Notes: generated by a model not told the origin, from the sequence alone. 21,541 nucleotides of DNA from an uncultured virus (IMG/VR IMGVR_UViG_3300030294_000020) (IMGVR_UViG_3300030294_000020), one strand, 5' to 3'; counted from the stretch's first letter, positions 1 to 8,518 are shown. A program made the numbers and translations.

Positions 1-1
1 T

Positions 2-169
2 TTAACTTATTGCATACTCCACTAATGATCTAACATAATTATCGGTACTAATATTTCCAAGTTCATGCAATTTGTTCAAACATGCTATTGCATTATTTGT
101 CTCTTCTTCTGTAATTGGATTTTCTTTTTTACCGTTAATCCATATTTCATAGTGTTCATTGTCATTCAT
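2..169 (-). CDS. Hypothetical 55-aa cassette protein, paralog of 447..692 (not in ORF track)
   Basis: Hand translation: MNDNEHYEIWINGKKENPITEEETNNAIACLNKLHELGNISTDNYVRSLVEYAIS*. SD GAAAGAGG and the promoter motif at 185-211 lie upstream. Confidence 0.8.
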   Translation of the reverse strand: MNDNEHYEIWINGKKENPITEEETNNAIACLNKLHELGNISTDNYVRSLVEYAIS

Positions 170-184
170 TATAATTAACCCTCT

Positions 185-211
185 TTCATTATAGGAGGTG
201 TTTTTAGTGCG
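185..211 (-). promoter_or_regulatory. Representative copy of the repeated 27-bp promoter-like motif (19 copies in 185-5611)
   Basis: Minus strand reads CGCAC-TAAAAACA-CCTCC-TATAAT-GAA. Every copy keeps the same spacing and lies directly upstream of an SD/ATG (or the ncRNA unit). There is no conserved TTGACA. Confidence 0.8.
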
Positions 212-227
212 TACTTAGAATCTTAGA

Positions 228-258
228 AGACAAAGAAAAAGCCTAAGCTAATTCCTCT
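228..258 (-). terminator. Representative copy of the repeated intrinsic terminator (class A, 16 copies)
   Basis: RNA: purine-rich arm-AGC[UUAG]GCUUUUUCUUUGUCU, a short stem with a 4-nt loop then a U-rich tail, at the 3' end of each ORF. Compensatory changes are seen in the copies at about 972-1000, 3727-3746 and 3970-4000. Confidence 0.75.
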
Positions 259-383
259 GATTGTGATGCCTTTATCAAATAATCTTGTTCTTCGTTAAAG
301 CATGATAATGAACAATGATTCAGTTCTGTATTTTCTGATTCAAATTCTTTACCACACCAAGTACAAATATTTTTATATTTCAT
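243..383 (-). CDS. 46-aa putative zinc-binding (CxxC-x13-CxxxC) protein (not in ORF track)
   Basis: MKYKNICTWCGKEFESENTELNHCSLSCFNEEQDYLIKASQSEELA*. SD AAGGAG; the stop TAG sits in the terminator loop. Confidence 0.8.
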   Translation of the reverse strand: MKYKNICTWCGKEFESENTELNHCSLSCFNEEQDYLIKASQSEELA

Positions 384-446
384 AATAATCTCCTTCTTTC
401 ATTATAGGGAGTGTTTTAAATACGAGACAAAGAAAAAGCCTAAGCT

Positions 447-692
447 TTAACTTTTTAAGTCTTCAATTGTTAATTTAAATCCTGAATCATTAAGTATTTT
501 ACATAATAATTGTGTATAGTTTTCTTTAGTAACCTCTCCTATTGCATATAGTTCTTTTAAACATTCTACTGAATTTGCATTTCTTGCAATTACATTAGCA
601 TTATTTAAATGTCTATCTATCTCAATAAGTGACCTTGCTCCTTTAATCCATAACTCATCATGTAAACCATTAGTTAATTTTTCATCGTACAT
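447..692 (-). CDS. Hypothetical 81-aa cassette protein
   Basis: ORF track; SD AAGGAG; flanked by the promoter motif and terminator; similar to 2..169. Confidence 0.85.
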   Translation of the reverse strand: MYDEKLTNGLHDELWIKGARSLIEIDRHLNNANVIARNANSVECLKELYAIGEVTKENYTQLLCKILNDSGFKLTIEDLKS

Positions 693-757
693 AATAATCT
701 CCTTCTTTCATTATAGGAGATGTTTTCTACGCGATTAAGACAAAGAAAAAGCCTAAG

Positions 758-898
758 CTAATTCCATAAAGTTCCATTTATTTTTTGCATCATTAATTCT
801 GATTGTTGTTCCTTTGTAAGTTTATTCCATAATCTATCACGATTTCTTGCGTGTAGTATTTTTCTATAACTTTTCATTGTATTTATCAATTTTCTCAT
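758..898 (-). CDS. Hypothetical basic 46-aa cassette protein (start revised to MRKLIN)
   Basis: SD AGGAGTG lies just upstream of ATG 898. The track start at 958 is upstream of the promoter motif. Confidence 0.75.
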   Translation of the reverse strand: MRKLINTMKSYRKILHARNRDRLWNKLTKEQQSELMMQKINGTLWN

Positions 899-998
899 AA
901 TAATCACTCCTAATAATTTTATTTCATTAAAGAGTGTGTTTTCTACGCGTACTACCATTTTGAATCGTTTAGGACAAAAAGAAAGCCTAAGCTCTCTT

Positions 999-1256
999 CT
1001 ATAGTAATGTTCTAAATCCTTCGTAATTCATCTCTTCAAATTTATGCTTTTCTTTAAAGTAATCAAACCTCTCACCCGTTCCTTTACAACATAAGACATA
1101 TATCGGTTGTATCTTAAATCCATCTGAACTTTTGATTATATCTGACTCTCTCAAATCATATATCTCAAAGCCTTCTTTCTTAAGTAAATCTTTAATACTT
1201 ACTGCTGCTTCTTCTGTATGGTTAGTTATAACCCTAAATTTCATTTTTTCAAACAT
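999..1256 (-). CDS. Hypothetical 85-aa cassette protein
   Basis: ORF track; SD AGGAGG; cassette context. Confidence 0.85.
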   Translation of the reverse strand: MFEKMKFRVITNHTEEAAVSIKDLLKKEGFEIYDLRESDIIKSSDGFKIQPIYVLCCKGTGERFDYFKEKHKFEEMNYEGFRTLL

Positions 1257-1343
1257 ATTAATTCCTCCTATAATAAAACATTATTTTCATTATAGTATGT
1301 GTTTTTAATGCGTACTTAGAATTTTATAAGACAAAGAAAAAGC

Positions 1344-1601
1344 CTAAGCTTCTTCCTCTTTAATAATTTCAGATTTCTTATTGTTCTTTAAAAATGCCTT
1401 TGCAGACGTTTCTAACTCTAGTTTTCCACTACGAGCAATCTCGACAATGATATCAATTTCATTTTCATCTAAGTCTAATGATTTTAACCATTCGTTAAAT
1501 TCACTATACCCAAACCTCCAATTAATTTTACCATTCATTCTTACCCAACTCATAATATATCTAGATGCATGTGTACCTCTAATAATTACATTTTCAAACA
1601 T
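1344..1601 (-). CDS. Hypothetical 85-aa cassette protein ending ...EEEA
   Basis: ORF track; SD AGGAGGT; stop in terminator loop. Confidence 0.85.
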   Translation of the reverse strand: MFENVIIRGTHASRYIMSWVRMNGKINWRFGYSEFNEWLKSLDLDENEIDIIVEIARSGKLELETSAKAFLKNNKKSEIIKEEEA

Positions 1602-1682
1602 AATAATACCTCCTAATTTTTTATTTCATTATAAGGTATGTTTTATACGCGTACTTAGAAGCTTATAAGACAAAGAAAAAGC

Positions 1683-2015
1683 CTAAGCCCTTTCTATAAT
1701 TGTAAATCCTTCATCTAAGGCATCTTGTTTTGAATAACCGTCTGCTAAAGCATCTGAATAGATAGCACAATACGTATCATCCGCAAATACTGGTAATCCA
1801 TTGTTGTACATTAAATTCTCGTTATTACATTTTTGCTTCCACTCCTTAGCCCATTCTGGTAGAACTTCAATGTTTGTTACATCATGAATTTCTACTTTTT
1901 CTGGCTTTAAAATGCTAGCAATAATTATACCTCCGACAATCAAACCACCTGCAATAATTTCCAATCTACGTTTTACGTAAAATTCTTTTATTTTCTGCTT
2001 TGTTTCAATTTTCAT
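1683..2015 (-). CDS. 110-aa protein with N-terminal membrane anchor
   Basis: Basic N-terminus then hydrophobic IIAGGLIVGGIIIASIL; SD AAGGA; cassette context. Confidence 0.85.
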   Translation of the reverse strand: MKIETKQKIKEFYVKRRLEIIAGGLIVGGIIIASILKPEKVEIHDVTNIEVLPEWAKEWKQKCNNENLMYNNGLPVFADDTYCAIYSDALADGYSKQDALDEGFTIIERA

Positions 2016-2101
2016 AATAATTTCCTTCTTTCAAATTTATTCTTCTATTATATAGTATGTTATTTATGCGTACTTAGAATCTTTTAAGACAAAGAAAAAG
2101 C

Positions 2102-2272
2102 CTAAGCTCTTTTCTTTTTATAATTATCTATAACTTTTTGTAGTTTATTACTAAATTTAACACATCCTTTTCTACCGCTAATTACATATATCATTGATAA
2201 TACAATACTTGTTAGTACGTATCCAATGTTGTATGTAATTTTATCGATTAGATTAGAAACATTATTATTCAT
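2102..2272 (-). CDS. 56-aa single-TM membrane protein (not in ORF track)
   Basis: MNNNVSNLIDKITYNIGYVLTSIVLSMIYVISGRKGCVKFSNKLQKVIDNYKKKRA*. SD AGGAGG; stop in terminator loop. Confidence 0.8.
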   Translation of the reverse strand: MNNNVSNLIDKITYNIGYVLTSIVLSMIYVISGRKGCVKFSNKLQKVIDNYKKKRA

Positions 2273-2362
2273 AATAATTCCTCCTAAAATTTTATTTAAT
2301 TCTTCTATTATATGAAGTGTTTTTAACGCGTACTTAGAATTTTAGAAGACAAAAGAAAAAGC

Positions 2363-2692
2363 CTAAGCTTCCTCTATGCCATTCAATTTTCGTATAGTAT
2401 CAAATTCCATTCCACTATCTTTCATCTCTTGCATATAAGATTCTGTGCATAATTCTTTCCATAAAATATCTCCATTTTCTGGATCTATAAAATGCATTTC
2501 AAGGCCTTTTTCCGAATCAAAATCAGTTCCTGGATTTGAAATCATTCCAGTAGCATCTTTATCAATACTTTGTTTATTAGCAATAATTGTTGTTATAACA
2601 ACCACCGTTAATATTCCCGTACTGGCAATAATAATACTTTTCTTCTCTTTCATCCATTTTTTAATTTTATCGGTCTTATCTTTAATACTCAT
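2363..2692 (-). CDS. 109-aa protein with N-terminal membrane anchor
   Basis: Basic N-terminus then IIIASTGILTVVVITTIIA; acidic C-terminal part ending IEEA; leader identical to that of 1683..2015. Confidence 0.85.
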   Translation of the reverse strand: MSIKDKTDKIKKWMKEKKSIIIASTGILTVVVITTIIANKQSIDKDATGMISNPGTDFDSEKGLEMHFIDPENGDILWKELCTESYMQEMKDSGMEFDTIRKLNGIEEA

Positions 2693-2802
2693 TTATATTC
2701 CTTCTTTCAAATTTATTCTTCTATTATATAGTATGTTATTTATGCGATTTATAGAACAAAAGAAAAAGCCTAAGCTCTTTCCTTAATAATTTGTTAAAGT
2801 TA

Positions 2803-3021
2803 TTAGCCTAATAAATGTTTAATACTTGACTCATTGATTTGCATAATCTCACCAATTTCAGCATTTGACAATCCTTTTCCCTTTAGCTCTTTTGCTTTCT
2901 TATAAAGTTCCTTCCTCAAATCTTCTTTATCTTTAGCATTTTTAGCTCTTAATTCTAGTACTGTCATACCTACTCTTTTAGCGATTTCTTTCTCACTTAC
3001 GTCACTCTTAAACCTAATCAT
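2803..3021 (-). CDS. 72-aa helix-turn-helix DNA-binding protein (two HTH-like segments)
   Basis: SEKEIAKRVGMTVLELR and GLSNAEIGEIMQINESSIKHLL both fit HTH patterns; SD GAAAGAGG. Confidence 0.75.
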   Translation of the reverse strand: MIRFKSDVSEKEIAKRVGMTVLELRAKNAKDKEDLRKELYKKAKELKGKGLSNAEIGEIMQINESSIKHLLG

Positions 3022-3094
3022 TAATAAAACCCTCTTTCAAATTTATTTCATTAAAGGGTGTGTTTTATGTGCGAATAAAAGACAAAGAAAAAGC

Positions 3095-3406
3095 CTAAGC
3101 TTTATCCTCTTTAATTTTCTTGGATTTATTTTTTATAATTATATGCCTTAAATAACTCCCAATACAAACAAGTCCTAATGTTATACCACTAACTAATAAT
3201 ATTTCCTTTCGTGCTTCAACTGCTCCTGCATTAACAAAATAACTAAGTCTATAATCAAGATTTTTATTCAAATCTTCCCTATTGTCGTCTGTTACATTAT
3301 CACTGCATAACATGTCTAAAGCATCAAATAATAAATATGTTCGTTCGTGTTTTCCATCAATTTCTTCCTGCCTAATATTTTTTATTACTCTATCTGCTGT
3401 ATTCAT
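3095..3406 (-). CDS. 103-aa protein with C-terminal TM segment
   Basis: ILLVSGITLGLVCIGSYL followed by a basic tail; SD AAGGAGG; stop in terminator loop. Confidence 0.85.
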   Translation of the reverse strand: MNTADRVIKNIRQEEIDGKHERTYLLFDALDMLCSDNVTDDNREDLNKNLDYRLSYFVNAGAVEARKEILLVSGITLGLVCIGSYLRHIIIKNKSKKIKEDKA

Positions 3407-3504
3407 AATAATTCCTCCTTAAAATTTATTTCATTAAAGGGTGTGTTTTTTATGCGTACTACCATTTTGAATCTTTTGAGACAAAAGAAAAAGCCTAAGC
3501 TTCT

Positions 3505-3681
3505 TCATTCAAAGTCGTCATCCATTATTATAATATCCTCAATAGCCTCATCATTAGAATGCAAATCAAGTTCGTCTAAAAATCTTTGAACAATCATAAG
3601 TTCATCGTCCGTAAAATTTTCAGTAGGCCAACTAAATCCTTCTCTATTATATCTTGCTGTTACATAAAATATTTTCTTCAT
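3505..3681 (-). CDS. 58-aa highly acidic protein (start revised to MKKIFY)
   Basis: SD GAAGGAG upstream of ATG 3681; 16 of 58 residues are D/E. The track start at 3762 crosses a terminator and the promoter motif. Confidence 0.8.
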   Translation of the reverse strand: MKKIFYVTARYNREGFSWPTENFTDDELMIVQRFLDELDLHSNDEAIEDIIIMDDDFE

Positions 3682-3758
3682 AATTAACATCTCCTTCATT
3701 ATAGAGGGTGTTATATACGCGACAAAAAGAAAGCCTAGGCTTTCTTCTATAAAGTTTC

Positions 3759-3914
3759 TCAATTTTGTTGGACTTCTTTAATTCTTTTAACTAAACTTGT
3801 GAATCCTAGCATTGGCACTTTAGATAATATTATTGCTCCTTCAATTACGATAGGTGCAACGGATATTACTATAGCTACTCCCACTAAGTTGTTCAACAAT
3901 GATTTAATTTTCAT
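3759..3914 (-). CDS. 51-aa hydrophobic/membrane peptide (not in ORF track)
   Basis: MKIKSLLNNLVGVAIVISVAPIVIEGAIILSKVPMLGFTSLVKRIKEVQQN*. SD AAGGAG; cassette context. Confidence 0.75.
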   Translation of the reverse strand: MKIKSLLNNLVGVAIVISVAPIVIEGAIILSKVPMLGFTSLVKRIKEVQQN

Positions 3915-3991
3915 AATTAACATCTCCTTAAAATTTTAATTCTTTCATTATAGGGGATGTTTTATATGCGACAAAAGAAAGAGCCTAAGCT

Positions 3992-4252
3992 CTATCCTTT
4001 AAAAGTGTTTGATATTTTGTCAATCTCAATTGAACTATCATTAGATTTAACAGATAACATTGCCATCCCTCTTTTGTAGTATTGTATATTACCCCAACAT
4101 ATAAGTTTATCTAAGAGTTTATAAACGCCTTTTTTATATTTAATTCGTTCATGTGCTCTTTTTAACCTTTCTGCATGTGCAATATACATATCTGCTTTTT
4201 TAAGTTTGTCAATGGTATCTTGCTTTAAATCTGTATGTTGTTCATCCTTCAT
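3992..4252 (-). CDS. Hypothetical basic 86-aa cassette protein (start revised to MKDEQH)
   Basis: SD AAGGGGTG upstream of ATG 4252. The track start overlaps the promoter motif. Confidence 0.75.
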   Translation of the reverse strand: MKDEQHTDLKQDTIDKLKKADMYIAHAERLKRAHERIKYKKGVYKLLDKLICWGNIQYYKRGMAMLSVKSNDSSIEIDKISNTFKG

Positions 4253-4299
4253 TTCCCCAATCACCCCTTTCAATATATACTGTGTTTATTACGCGATAT

Positions 4300-4338
4300 G
4301 GAGAAAAAGAAAAGGACATGTATTTAAACACGTCCTTT
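4300..4338 (-). terminator. Intrinsic terminator, class B
   Basis: AAAGGACGUGU-loop-ACAUGUCCUUUUCUUUUUCUCC; the stop of 4324..4626 is in the loop. The tail matches those at about 5504 and 5614. Confidence 0.8.
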
Positions 4339-4626
4339 GATGATGAAGCCCAATGCTTTAGAACCAAGTACATGTGCATGTTCAAATCCCACTATCAATA
4401 AAATTCCAGCTAAACTACCTGCAATCTGCCATTTTGTATCAGCACTAGCTTTAGTTGTATCCTTTTCTTTGGATTTCCCCTCTTTTAGTTCTGTTATATT
4501 TTGGTTTATGCCATCGTATTTTGCCTTTTCTTCTATTGGATCTAGTGTCGATAATATTTCATGCAACCTCTCAATTTCCTTATCTGCAAGACTTCTTTTA
4601 TCTTTTGGTATCCATATTTTTTTCAT
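4324..4626 (-). CDS. 100-aa phage membrane protein (C-terminal hydrophobic segment)
   Basis: WQIAGSLAGILLIVGFEHAHVLGSKALGFII; SD AAAGGAG. Confidence 0.85.
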   Translation of the reverse strand: MKKIWIPKDKRSLADKEIERLHEILSTLDPIEEKAKYDGINQNITELKEGKSKEKDTTKASADTKWQIAGSLAGILLIVGFEHAHVLGSKALGFIIKGRV

Positions 4627-4697
4627 TATCCTTTTCTCCTTTCGAGATTTATCATCTCATTATACAGTGTGTTTCTAACGCGAGATAAAGAAAAAGC

Positions 4698-4875
4698 CTA
4701 AGCTTCCTCTAACATAATACTATCAATAACAGTTTGTATTGCATCTATTAACCCACCTACTTGTGAATCTTTTAACTCAAATAATTCAGGTATCTCTTCT
4801 TCGGTATCTACTAACAGTAGTTTAACTGCTAATTTTTCCATTTAATTTTTCACATATCCTTGAATTTAATTTCAT
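4698..4875 (-). pseudogene. Frameshifted paralog of 5240..5449
   Basis: The SD-led ATG 4875 gives MKLNSRICEKL then a premature stop. Homology continues in another frame from 4841: MEKLAVKLLLVDTEEEIPELFELKDSQVGGLIDAIQTVIDSIMLEEA*. Confidence 0.7.
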
Positions 4876-4957
4876 AATAAAACCTCCTCATAATATTCTT
4901 TCATTATAGAATATGTTTCTAACGCGAATTAGAATTTAAGAAGACAAAAGAAAAAGC

Positions 4958-5167
4958 CTAAGCTTCTTCTATTTTAATTTCTTTTAAAGCATTCATTATT
5001 TTTTGAATCTCTTGTTCATTTACCTCTTTTTCTATATAAGCCTGTCCTAACTTAGTAGATAAATCCTCAATCTGGTTTTTATAACATACGATTGTATGAT
5101 CTGTATCCTTAAGTTTATGACATTCATTATATAAGTCAATTGTTAATCTGAATATTTCTTCATTCAT
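4958..5167 (-). CDS. 69-aa coiled-coil cassette protein (start revised to MNEEIF)
   Basis: SD AAGGAGTG; heptad-like pattern; ends IEEA in terminator. Confidence 0.8.
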   Translation of the reverse strand: MNEEIFRLTIDLYNECHKLKDTDHTIVCYKNQIEDLSTKLGQAYIEKEVNEQEIQKIMNALKEIKIEEA

Positions 5168-5239
5168 AATAATCACTCCTTAAATTTCTTTCATTATATA
5201 GAGTGTTTTGTACGCGTACTAAGAAGTCAAAGAAAAAGC

Positions 5240-5449
5240 CTAAGCTTCTTCTATTCCAACATTACTCCGAATTTCTTTTATTATATCAGCTAGTTCATCT
5301 ATTTGTTTGTCTGACATATTTTGTATACCTGGTATATTAGTAACCTCATAATCCTCAACAGTTAATACTTCAACTGCTAATTTCTCTAGATCATTTTTTA
5401 CCGGATATTTTTTTAATGCTTCTTTGCATTCTTTCGATTCTAATTTCAT
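5240..5449 (-). CDS. 69-aa acidic cassette protein (start revised to MKLESK)
   Basis: SD AAGGAGG upstream of ATG 5449; ends IEEA in terminator. Confidence 0.85.
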   Translation of the reverse strand: MKLESKECKEALKKYPVKNDLEKLAVEVLTVEDYEVTNIPGIQNMSDKQIDELADIIKEIRSNVGIEEA

Positions 5450-5502
5450 AATAAAATCCTCCTTATAATATTCTTTCATTATATAGAATGTTTTTTACGC
5501 GA

Positions 5503-5587
5503 AGGAGAAAAAAGAAACAGTATGTTAATGTCTTTCGACGGATCTGGTTTAGCTTTCACTAATCCTAGCATCCCACTGTTTACTTCT
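5503..5587 (-). ncRNA. Candidate ~80-nt structured small RNA (three-way junction, two GAAA tetraloops)
   Basis: Sits between a promoter motif and a U-tract with no SD-led ORF. Pairings by eye: AGAAG.AAACAGUG/UACUGUUUCUUUU, GGAU..CU..GG..UUAGU[GAAA]GCUAA..CC.AG.AUCC, and GUC[GAAA]GAC. Confidence 0.6.
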
Positions 5588-5611
5588 ATTAAGGGGTATG
5601 TTTTCTACGCG

Positions 5612-5654
5612 AAGGAGAAAAAGAAAGGACATGCTTATCTTTCATCCTTTCTTT
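5612..5654 (-). terminator. Class B hairpin terminator downstream of the lysis module / empty cassette
   Basis: AAAGAAAGGAUG-loop-UGUCCUUUCUUUUUCUCC, a 12-bp stem plus U-tract, about 60 nt after the holin stop. Confidence 0.7.
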
Positions 5655-5712
5655 ATTATAAGAAGTATTTATACGAAACCTTTTAAGATCACCTATCCCT
5701 TCTTTATTCTTA

Positions 5713-6042
5713 TTATTTTAAATTAGCACCATTTTGAATATTTAGAGTAAGAGTTGTTTTATCACTTAAATCACTTAAATCCGTATCAAGTACTAATTTG
5801 TAAATGTCCTTCTTAGGATCACTTGTGTCTATTAAGAACGAACCATCTTTAGTCTTGTTATACTGTGCTGATGAGATTCCTAAGATTATTCCTAGAAATA
5901 TATCTATAGCAGTAATAGTTCCGACAATTTGTTCTCCGTAGGGTAATCCCCATATGCCAGATAAGGCAAAGTATAGAGTACCCATTGCTGGAAAGAAGTA
6001 TTGAGCCATCCATTTGAGCATATCATATAATTTACTTTTCAT
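5713..6042 (-). CDS. Holin, Dp-1-like family, with C-terminal soluble extension (start revised to MKSKLY)
   Basis: LYDMLKWMAQYFFPAMGTLYFALSGIWGLPYGEQIVGTITAIDIFLGIILGISS is a recognisable two-TM Dp-1-type holin pattern; downstream of the endolysin. Confidence 0.8.
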   Translation of the reverse strand: MKSKLYDMLKWMAQYFFPAMGTLYFALSGIWGLPYGEQIVGTITAIDIFLGIILGISSAQYNKTKDGSFLIDTSDPKKDIYKLVLDTDLSDLSDKTTLTLNIQNGANLK

Positions 6043-6534: not shown

Positions 6535-6635
6535 AAACGCATCTGTATAAAAATATCCAGTCTATTCTATAGTATCATAGGCAATTGCTTTGTCTAAGAA
6601 TAGTTGCTGGATCATTTTTTTATATAAGAGCATTT
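6535..6635. other. Long imperfect intergenic inverted repeat (~100-nt stem-loop)
   Basis: Nested arms aaacgc/gcattt, tataaaaa/tttttata, atccag/ctggat and ctattct/agaatag. Confidence 0.7.
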
Positions 6636-6651
6636 ATACCTACATATTTGA

Positions 6652-7554
6652 CTATCTTAATAAAGCAGTCCAAGTATCTGGGCCTACTACTCCATCATCA
6701 TCAAGTCCTACTGCTCTTTGGAATGCTTTAACTGCAGCAAGTGTCTTTGGCCCAAATATTCCTATTTGATCTGAAAGAGCCATTGCTAAACGTCTTTGCA
6801 ACCATAAAGTTATATTACTATTTGATCCAACCCTTAATACTGGGCAAGCTTTAAGTGTTAATGGGCCAAAGAAACCATCTATTTTCAAGGTAGTTTTAGC
6901 TACATAATTAAGAGTTCCTTGTAATGATGCTATTGATTGATTTACTCTTGTTGCTGGTGCAGTAACTACTACAGGTCTTGGCAATGGTGTATTAACCTTA
7001 CCAATAGATGACCCAACAATTCCTTCTGCTATTGCTTTTCCTACAGCTTCATGTCCTACACTTCTATATATTCGAATATCTTCTGTTGCTTCACAAAAGC
7101 ATACTTCTACTAATACTGCTGTTGCAACAGATGCTTTAATATCATGTAGATGTTGTACATTTATACCATCTTTTAACCCACGATTCTTAAAACCTAATGC
7201 TGCTAAATTATTAAGTATTCTTGTTCCTATTTCAACTGCCTTAGGATTATTTGGGTTAAGCCAAATTTCACTACCTATTGCTCCTGCATAAGAATCATAT
7301 GCCTTATTAAAATGTATAGGCACTGATAAATCCACATGAGCATTATTAGCAGTGTTTGTCCCATAATTAAGATCCTCATTTTCACTACAATTACCAGGCG
7401 TAGAATCAATAGTCTCTACACCAGCTCTTTGTAGATAGTTTATTGCCCAAGGATATACTAATCGATCTTCCTTTGTTTCATCAAGTCCACCAACATTAGT
7501 GGCACTAGCTCCTGGGCATTGTGGATTGTGTCCGCCTCTTACTGCTGCTTTCAT
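6652..7554 (-). CDS. Endolysin: N-acetylmuramoyl-L-alanine amidase (Amidase_3) with C-terminal PG_binding_1-type repeats
   Basis: Zn-amidase motifs GGHN, E..EDR, IHFN and LVEVCF; Pro-rich linker; DGFFGPLT, GIFGPKT..AVKAFQ and DGVVGPDTW. Confidence 0.92.
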   Translation of the reverse strand: MKAAVRGGHNPQCPGASATNVGGLDETKEDRLVYPWAINYLQRAGVETIDSTPGNCSENEDLNYGTNTANNAHVDLSVPIHFNKAYDSYAGAIGSEIWLNPNNPKAVEIGTRILNNLAALGFKNRGLKDGINVQHLHDIKASVATAVLVEVCFCEATEDIRIYRSVGHEAVGKAIAEGIVGSSIGKVNTPLPRPVVVTAPATRVNQSIASLQGTLNYVAKTTLKIDGFFGPLTLKACPVLRVGSNSNITLWLQRRLAMALSDQIGIFGPKTLAAVKAFQRAVGLDDDGVVGPDTWTALLR

Positions 7555-8210: not shown

Positions 8211-8231
8211 TTACCACCACCAAATCCACAT
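8211..8231 (-). CDS. Candidate Trp-rich leader peptide MWIWWW
   Basis: AAGGATGTG (8/9 match to AAGGAGGTG), 6-nt spacer, then ATG TGG ATT TGG TGG TGG TAA. Confidence 0.4.
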   Translation of the reverse strand: MWIWWW

Positions 8232-8272
8232 ATATACCACATCCTTCTTATATATTAGTGATATCTATTGAA

Positions 8273-8518
8273 TTATACATATATAACAAATCCAAGTTCT
8301 ATTGCCCTATCTTTTACTGCTGCTTGGAATGCTTCGTACTGGGTCTTTACTGTTACAGCATTAGATTGAAGCAATGTCATATTACTTACAGTCATTGAAA
8401 CATTTACATTTTGACTAGTTGTATCTAAATTTGCATTTAAAAATGCTACCTGAACATCGACCCCATTTTCAGCTTTTCCAGTTACTATAGCAGTTATGTT
8501 TGTTGTTATGTTTATCAT
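8273..8518 (-). CDS. Hypothetical 81-aa protein (post-tail-fibre)
   Basis: ORF track; SD AAGGAATGGTG. Confidence 0.8.
   Translation of the reverse strand: MINITTNITAIVTGKAENGVDVQVAFLNANLDTTSQNVNVSMTVSNMTLLQSNAVTVKTQYEAFQAAVKDRAIELGFVIYV

Follow-up and report, generated by a model that had tools for sequence, protein, structure and literature searches.

Why does an array of small phage genes, each in a unit of its own, open with a unit that holds no gene? The locus belongs to an uncultured phage from a peat metagenome, and the stretch of DNA analysed here (21.5 kb, called the window below) has every gene on the minus strand. An earlier note, written from the sequence alone, had proposed that the gene-less unit (minus strand, 5611..5503) yields a novel phage sRNA expressed in the same way as the protein cargo of its neighbours. 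Our answer is a tentative yes: we put at slightly less than even the chance that the unit encodes a stand-alone non-coding RNA, a candidate orphan small RNA.

Reading down the minus strand from 8101, one first meets a 174-codon ORF and an amidase; a long terminator-like hairpin comes next, ahead of a 150-aa ORF and a Dp-1-type holin (Table 1). The hairpin (6542..6621, minus strand), which lies in the gap between the amidase and the 150-aa ORF and runs into a U-run, had the best z value (-5.3) of our sliding-window scan and is probably a terminator within the lysis module. From base 5700 down to base 1 the sequence shifts in character: this part has 29% G+C and about 20 small genes, and 14 of the 15 array genes scanned against Pfam are without a family. 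In one metagenome contig (L010) the array extends at least 505 nt beyond the left end of the window (L010 1..505).

Each array gene is enclosed in an identical composite unit consisting of a hairpin, a U-rich run, a promoter-like box, and an SD with start codon. The hairpin, GAAGC-TTAG-GCTTTTTCTTTGTC, has a stop codon inside its loop; in about half of the array units the stop TAG lies in the loop of the GCTTAGGC hairpin. The promoter-like part reads CGCRTA, AAAACAY, four bases and TATAATGAAAGAA, with SD and start codon some 10-20 nt on. A weight matrix built from 17 copies (the copy P1 of the gene-less unit being scored with 17 others) detects 19 copies in the window, all on the minus strand, at positions 193 to 5593; they score 26-51 bits, while the top other site across the 21.5 kb has -8.8 bits. 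Terminator-like hairpins are enriched in the window (nine found versus 1.7 expected), and repeat families D1-D6 accompany the array units.

The array unit has a -10-like TATAAT and no -35 element, and sigma-70-type sites with a -35 are not enriched in the window (31 found versus 35.1 expected). We therefore take the units to be promoters on the strength of their layout. Since CGCRTA and AAAACAY are conserved close to TATAAT and a -35 is missing, an unusual sigma factor or polymerase may read the box.

In the PeSL cassettes of T4-type phages, as the main text of two papers describes them, small terminator-plus-promoter units repeat between small, mostly ORFan genes, so that each gene is its own transcription unit, and the units are points of gene exchange (PMC2839356, PMC4122927). 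The window has the same composite, a terminator hairpin and then a promoter, repeated between small genes: there are 19 unit copies in 5.7 kb, and contigs from other samples are alike at the unit and different beside it. In these other peat runs the contigs have the promoter unit 5469..5516 in common with the window and differ from it in the flanking sequence on both sides; their loose ends or joints fall at 5469, 5504, 5516 and 5247, and they may come from other arrays. With its 19 or more self-contained units behind lysis genes, region 1..5700 is an array of the PeSL-like kind. Several features set it apart from PeSL cassettes. The genome belongs to a tailed peat phage that has a long tape-measure-type gene and is no T4-type myovirus; the unit is without a sigma-70 -35 and has CGCGTA and an AAAACAY box near the -10; the terminator loop contains the stop TAG; the lysis genes precede the array; and one unit has no ORF. 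The array is a further case of PeSL-like organisation, with another promoter box and in another type of phage.

The gene-less unit is the first of the array and the sole one without a gene. It consists of a promoter-like copy (P1), about 74 nt without a credible ORF, a U-run and then the next promoter unit (P2). The hexamers of P1 and P2 are 110 nt apart, while the other 17 of the 18 intervals between successive copies measure 213-419 nt and each contain an ORF; this exception is one of the observations in favour of an RNA. The hexamer CTTAAT that the earlier note had placed ahead of its RNA was found at 5593..5588, within the array repeat copy CGCGTAGAAAACATACCCCTTAAT, and the RNA itself is the reverse complement of 5587..5503. 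P1 as a whole (CGCGTAGAAAACATACCCCTTAATAGAAG) has the lowest score among the 19 copies, and its hexamer differs from TATAAT at the first two positions. Measured against the background maximum of -8.8 bits, its 26.0 bits make P1 an unmistakable copy of the array unit, which supports the candidate RNA; being the weakest copy of a unit that owes its promoter status to layout and has no -35, it weakens the case as well. The 13-nt box TCTCCTTCGCGTA, which opens both P1 and P2, occurs twice in the window versus 0.14 expected.

Table 1. Features of the gene-less unit and of its surroundings, with the basis of each assignment
Feature	Position	Strand	Basis or score
Amidase gene	7554..6652	-	Domains Amidase_3 + PG_binding_1
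Holin gene (Dp-1 type), last lysis gene ahead of the array	5713..6042	-	Pfam PF16938, E 9.6e-29; translation
P0, degenerate promoter-like relic TTCGTATAAATACTTCTTATAATAAAGAAAGG, indel relative to consensus	5648..5677	-	Read by eye; no weight-matrix score
T1, 11-bp hairpin with 13-nt loop, then U-rich run	5615..5654	-	-10.8 kcal/mol, z -2.0, 8/200 shuffles
Boundary box TCTCCTTCGCGTA, copy 1, opens P1	5606..5618	-	Exact repeat
P1, promoter-like unit: CGCGTA, AAAACAT, hexamer CTTAAT (5593..5588), purine box AGAAG (5587..5583)	5583..5611	-	26.0 bits
Predicted transcript, ~74 nt	5508..5581	-	Start taken 6-7 nt beyond the hexamer, end in the U-run (both inferred)
Closing stem, 5' strand AAACAGUG, pairs with UACUGUUU (5522..5515)	5574..5581	-	MFE and centroid structures
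Arm 1, bulged hairpin GGAU.CU.GG.UUAGU-GAAA-GCUAA.CC AG AUCC, GAAA loop 5557..5554	5540..5573	-	Fold
Arm 2, mini-hairpin GUC-GAAA-GAC	5530..5539	-	Fold
Single-stranded AUUAACA, arm 2 to closing stem	5523..5529	-	Fold
T2, terminator-like end: UACUGUUU (5522..5515), then CUUUUUU	5508..5522	-	Fold
Boundary box TCTCCTTCGCGTA, copy 2, opens P2	5496..5508	-	Exact repeat
P2, consensus promoter-like unit of the next cassette, hexamer TATAAT (5483..5478)	5471..5501	-	48.0 bits
First protein cassette, 69 aa, SD GGAGG, stop within GCTTAGGC hairpin	5240..5449	-	

Between the holin and P1 (5615..5677, minus strand) lies what looks like an 'empty' unit, in which the promoter relic P0 stands directly on the terminator T1 with nothing between; the 5' arm of T1 is the purine box of P0. 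Such company suggests a second reading of the gene-less unit, an unlikely one that still carries real weight: it may be an empty or decayed cassette, maybe transcribed and without function, in which a promoter copy and a terminator arm flank some 50 nt of leftover sequence. It would have arisen by recombination between boundary units, the route by which genes enter and leave arrays of the PeSL type, or by the decay of an ORF or of a tRNA-shaped RNA cargo. P1 being the weakest promoter copy fits this account, and with the emptier pair P0 and T1 directly upstream the array seems to begin in a graveyard of units. The contigs that share unit 5469..5516 and diverge on both sides of it fit exchange at units, which also speaks for this reading. 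Decay is seen within the array too. Cassette 4698..4873 (minus strand) is a frameshifted paralog of cassette 5240..5449: its SD-led frame ends after 17 codons, and the remaining protein is found in another frame (47-aa ORF 4841..4698), either because the copy is decaying or because of a sequencing or assembly slip. These degenerate neighbours count against a functional RNA.

Frames do exist on both strands of the unit, so that it might conceivably hold a gene for a tiny protein. On the minus strand there is a 30-codon ATG frame (5571..5479), or 26 codons if read from GTG 5559; on the plus strand there are a 54-codon frame (5522..5686) and a 42-codon frame, largely made of boundary repeats. An AGGA is located 3 nt ahead of GTG 5559 and a GGAG 14 nt ahead of ATG 5522, and small SD-led genes are known in related arrays, for instance the 24-codon gene at L056(-) 3616-3754. 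Against this, the SD spacing is wrong for both candidate starts. The minus-strand frame has no properly spaced SD, crosses the U-run and P2, and ends in the TATAAT of P2; the plus-strand frame opposes all genes of the window. Family matches of the plus-strand frame are sub-threshold (PF06900, 16.6 bits with a cutoff of 27; phrog_24915, E 8.9e-4, with no passing stretch) and cover residues 36-52, which lie beyond the RNA. With neither a usable SD nor family support for these frames, the earlier description of the unit as ORF-less, with no SD-led frame, therefore stands, and we hold a tiny protein gene to be very improbable.

We return to the candidate RNA and its shape. The minimum free energy (MFE) fold of the 80 nt, computed with ViennaRNA, is identical to the one described in the earlier note (ends paired with one bulge, two GAAA-capped arms and an open AUUAACA) and is the same with or without flanks. 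Beyond one bulged U the closing stem is extended by pairing of AGAAG with CUUUU, and a run of six U occupies 5513..5508. The exact 80 nt, whose borders were picked after the fold had been seen, have an MFE of -22.4 kcal/mol (z -4.24, 0/200 shuffles as good, MFE frequency 0.25). For the likely transcript, 5581..5508 (74 nt), the MFE is -18.9 kcal/mol (z -3.06, 1/200 shuffles), and for 109 nt with flanks it is -22.8 kcal/mol (z -1.98, 6/200 shuffles). The plus strand is not structured (-21.2 kcal/mol, z -0.54, 53/200 shuffles). Of the 537 minus-strand 80-nt windows in the sliding scan, three had z <= -4 and eight had z <= -3; the region is therefore in about the top 1%, yet it is not unique, and by raw energy it ranks 98th among 10,732 windows, both of which weaken the case for an RNA.

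Part of this stability belongs to the design of the cassette. The outer 5 bp are the purine box of the promoter paired with the U-run of the terminator, and any empty unit would pair likewise; T1 (hairpin at 5654..5620) is built in the same way, with the purine box of P0 as a stem arm. This generic pairing speaks for an empty cassette and against the RNA. The inner arms owe nothing to it: on their own (45 nt) they reach -13.2 kcal/mol with z -3.49, 0/200 shuffles and an MFE frequency of 0.75. They also have the highest G+C of the array, 0.467 with a mean of 0.29, which places them in the top 0.09% of 45-nt windows in 1..5700. A fold that is strongest where the cassette contributes nothing, on a strand whose complement is unstructured, supports the candidate RNA, and so does a G+C spike of the kind that structured RNAs make in A+T-rich DNA. 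An insert so G+C-rich and well folded is unexpected for leftover A+T-rich coding sequence, such as a decayed ORF, and it has no recognisable ORF remnant or paralog elsewhere in the window. The earlier note had named a deleted-ORF remnant as the outcome that would undo its claim; the missing remnant favours that claim, and an empty or decayed cassette keeps the weight that we gave it above.

Known families do not account for the RNA. Rfam 15 produced no match at gathering score in the whole window, and within 5400..5750 the eight matches with E <= 10 all had 15-18 bits, as against gathering scores of 47.5-65. ARAGORN reported no tRNA or tmRNA in the window, and none for the unit at the 85% or 70% thresholds. 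A tRNA is recognised by its cloverleaf with a T-arm (GTTCRANYC loop) and a D-arm; the RNA has neither a T-loop nor a D-arm, and the Rfam tRNA model RF00005 does not match it at E <= 10. The earlier note was right in not recognising a tRNA, a hammerhead or a known riboswitch here. For tRNA, tmRNA, hammerhead, riboswitch, CRISPR repeat and group II domain alike, there was no support from Rfam or ARAGORN.

The position of the fold, directly behind the holin and T1 and directly ahead of P2, with a closing stem that adjoins the U-run, would also suit an element that acts in cis. With T1 it could make up a double stop or an insulator where the late lysis operon gives way to the accessory array, which would be under separate control, or it could be a structured leader or attenuator of the first cassette gene (5449..5240), which would then be transcribed from P1 past a weak T2; we consider this improbable. 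Intrinsic terminators have a G+C-rich stem, a short loop and a U-run directly after. The window RNA is like one in that its stem stands directly before six U and its A-rich 5' flank can pair with the U-run. It is unlike one (loops of 3-8 nt) in that the stem encloses a 52-nt two-armed interior. At T2 the U-run (5513..5508) is present, while the stem is A-U-rich, with two of the eight pairs of the closing stem being G-C, which makes for a poor intrinsic terminator. The terminator scan of the window did not flag T2, because the stem encloses the junction. The weak stem tells against the candidate RNA as well.

Apart from itself, a covariance model built from this single sequence best matches plain terminator hairpins (E 0.69), which have a similar UAACA loop and lack the 46-nt interior; the closing stem thus looks like a usual terminator whose loop has received an insert. 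Against a role in cis, T1 already separates the holin from P1; a three-way junction on an A-U-rich stem makes for poor termination; at 48.0 bits P2 is a copy of full strength, so that the next gene can do without a leader from P1; riboswitch and leader families give no match; and simple hairpins suffice for the other 17 units.

For the stand-alone RNA the next question was whether relatives exist in which its pairings are kept. In GenBank phages blastn gave one irrelevant match in the holin part, three matches of 44 nt and no RNA homolog. Exact 20-mers of the RNA and of its terminator had no hits in IMG/VR (0 each), a descriptor of the two hairpins had none in genome contigs and none in viral contigs, and the promoter pattern was absent from the genome contigs. 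Searches with the RNA by blastn-short and nhmmer found nothing in 60 loci (570 kb) or in 116 loci (659 kb), and the covariance model returned a self-match only in 390 kb of related loci and four viral records. The region is absent from the nearest viral record (G001), and the holin relatives (L003, L004) are unrelated high-G+C phages with no array. We also scanned metagenome contigs with a search keyed to both boundary boxes, by which any insert between them would be caught. It returned 17 loci, 15 of them unrelated and two with the unit (L006 and L010), and these two agree with the window at 100% identity for 2.9 and 7.0 kb.

Part of the stretch is also present in 24 peat runs (at least half of it in 13), none of which is an RNA run. 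Contigs over the RNA were compared in four of the 24: three runs have no differences, and the fourth has thin cover. The collection of homologs advised in the earlier note thus brought copies, from the two contigs and the peat runs, all 100% identical, and no diverged homolog in any collection searched; there is hence no covariation and no sign of selection. An unchanged stretch in three of the four runs examined and in two metagenome contigs favours the RNA and speaks against an empty cassette; the copies are near-clonal, and their sameness across samples therefore says little. The want of homologs, in turn, fits an empty cassette. In that fourth run (X8) a contig joins 5504 to 5588 and skips the insert (5505..5587), which weakens the case for the RNA; in the same contig 5612 is also followed directly by 5228, the shorter side of the joint measures 25 letters, and placement was at 80% likeness. 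The X8 joint is ambiguous because both of its sides are copies of the same boundary.

Related arrays give the candidate RNA a context. An IMG/VR scan with the promoter core led to viral contigs with arrays of like design; L037 among them even shares the GCTTAGGC hairpin with its stop in the loop, as well as a CATGTCCTT...CGCG boundary. We counted 59 promoter-to-promoter intervals of at most 1500 nt on 13 locus-strands, not de-duplicated. Seven are no longer than 150 nt: one contains an SD-led 24-codon gene, and six are gene-less (one in the window, three in L037, one in L056 and one in L044). The relatives' gene-less units are 88-142 nt long, and each has an array promoter ahead and a U-run at its end; all five end in a 6-7-bp end-to-end stem with the U-run, and four of the five have tRNA features. 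The RNAs are located, all on the minus strand, at 7163..7291 of L056, at 3967..4084 of L044, and at 6721..6824, 8226..8310 and 6633..6707 of L037. The L037-type loci come from seven contigs of 99.86-100% identity, too alike to show covariation, and a further viral scan for short promoter-to-promoter units yielded six L037-type array copies and one chance match. With gene-less, RNA-bearing units in relatives, RNA cargo seems normal for such arrays, which supports the candidate; as a rule, the short gene-less units there contain a compact RNA whose two ends pair to close it.

The tRNA features differ from unit to unit. In L037(-) 3970-4087 ARAGORN calls a tRNA-Thr(AGU) of 78 nt with an over-long anticodon loop, a call that the Rfam tRNA model does not confirm. 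In L056(-) 2471-2613 the Rfam tRNA model aligns over its positions 10-63, and a 4-nt GAAA loop replaces the anticodon loop; at 21.9 bits (E 0.014, search of 171 nt) this match stays under the gathering score, 29. L044(-) 4521-4652 shows, by eye and by fold, a D-arm, a CCGG-GCAA-CCGG stub and a T-arm, and has no Rfam tRNA match. The L056 and L044 units thus both have a D-arm and a T-arm, with a GNRA-capped stub (CUG-GAAA-CAG and CCGG-GCAA-CCGG, respectively) in place of the anticodon arm. In L037(-) 2484-2582 there is a T-arm, matched by the T-arm of the tmRNA model at E 0.032; T-arm-like GGTTCGAA hairpins are shared by this unit and L044(-) 4521-4652. One gene-less unit of the relatives is a plain 7-bp stem with a 26-nt loop. 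The failure of the Rfam tRNA model to confirm the L037 ARAGORN call or the L044 unit weakens the support that these units lend.

The window RNA is like the tRNA-shaped units of L056, L044 and L037 in having an array promoter, an end-to-end stem (6-8 bp among these RNAs), a U-run and a GNRA mini-hairpin. Such mini-hairpins, of 3-4 bp, are GUC-GAAA-GAC in the window, CUG-GAAA-CAG in L056, CCGG-GCAA-CCGG in L044 and CUC-GAAA-GAG in L037. It is unlike them in having no T-loop or D-arm. Core alignments of the window RNA with the five units of the relatives gave p values of 0.027, 0.056, 0.19, 0.61 and 0.93, none of which survives correction; the lowest belong to L037(-) 4087-4175 (0.027) and L044(-) 4521-4652 (0.056), and in the best-looking alignment (to L044) the pairings are not preserved. 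Homology to these RNA units was accordingly rejected. Units that are not demonstrably homologous, next to an RNA that is not tRNA-like, are a weak point of the candidate; the faint, non-significant likeness to L037(-) 4087-4175 and L044(-) 4521-4652 counts for an empty or decayed cassette.

What could such an RNA do? If the stand-alone RNA is real, P1, as the unit's own copy of the array-type promoter, would drive its transcription, which would start near 5581 and stop at the U-run 5513..5508. The product would be a non-coding RNA of some 70-75 nt with its ends paired in the 8-bp stem and a U tail. This end-to-end stem would resemble a tRNA acceptor stem and would enclose the bulged GAAA arm, the 3-bp GAAA arm and the 7-nt joint. 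The cargo of the unit would then be an RNA in place of a small protein, presumably with a job of its own.

Pairing with the array's own messages does not appear to be that job. In a comparison of 32 translation start regions of the array with 200 shuffles, p was 0.275 for the best and 0.865 for the mean pairing, and two cassettes have an SD-AUG spacer with an 8-nt match to AUUAACAU, which is no more than chance would give (E 15). An anti-leader or antisense sRNA of the array's own genes was rejected, as the duplex energies are no better than those of shuffles. The novel-sRNA proposal of the earlier note holds up in part: the unit is complete, the insert is G+C-rich and folded, no known family fits, and related arrays have RNA cargo; the proposal gained nothing from pairing to array translation starts or from diverged homologs with structure-preserving substitutions, and none of the roles it named (decoy, antitoxin mimic, guide) found support.

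Since no antisense target was found, we prefer a protein ligand over antisense pairing. Our guess, suggested by the compact loop-capped shape and the company of tRNA-shaped units, is that the RNA may bind a host or phage protein as a structured ligand or decoy. A bolder version is a long shot: arrays of this type would routinely carry RNA as well as protein cargo, and the 74-nt junction RNA would be a minimised member, possibly a descendant of a tRNA-shaped unit, that acts as a decoy or ligand. It would keep the acceptor-like stem and the GNRA stubs and would target a host RNA-binding defence protein or an RNA-processing protein.

Phage accessory regions are known to specify RNA products, such as the prophage-encoded anti-sRNAs AgvB and AsxR (described in parts of PMC3594210 and PMC4104026). 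The gene-less unit is like morons and these anti-sRNAs, as far as those parts describe them, in being an extra unit with its own promoter and terminator in such a region. It is unlike AgvB and AsxR, in the same parts, in that no Hfq-type seed or target was found for the window RNA (32 start regions, p 0.28 best, 0.87 mean). In the main text of the PeSL papers PMC2839356 and PMC4122927, we found no mention of RNA cargo or of empty units. If the RNA is real, shuffling promoter-terminator arrays trade small structured RNAs besides small proteins, and an RNA without a family is added to the candidate phage factors of counter-defence or host control; it would so far be a family of one member, a single unconserved candidate. 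At present the locus is of use chiefly for directing attention to the RNA units in related arrays, some of them tRNA-shaped, which are better anchored for study.

The related arrays also hold very small protein genes: in L056(-) 3616..3754 and 3973..4172 and in L060, SD-led genes of 24 and 38 codons, each in a unit of its own, encode hydrophobic proteins of very small size. In the array of the window, a 72-aa protein (2803..3021, minus strand) has a Sigma70_r4_2-like helix-turn-helix (PF08281, 26.7 bits, barely over the cutoff), which would make it a candidate small regulator amid the ORFans.
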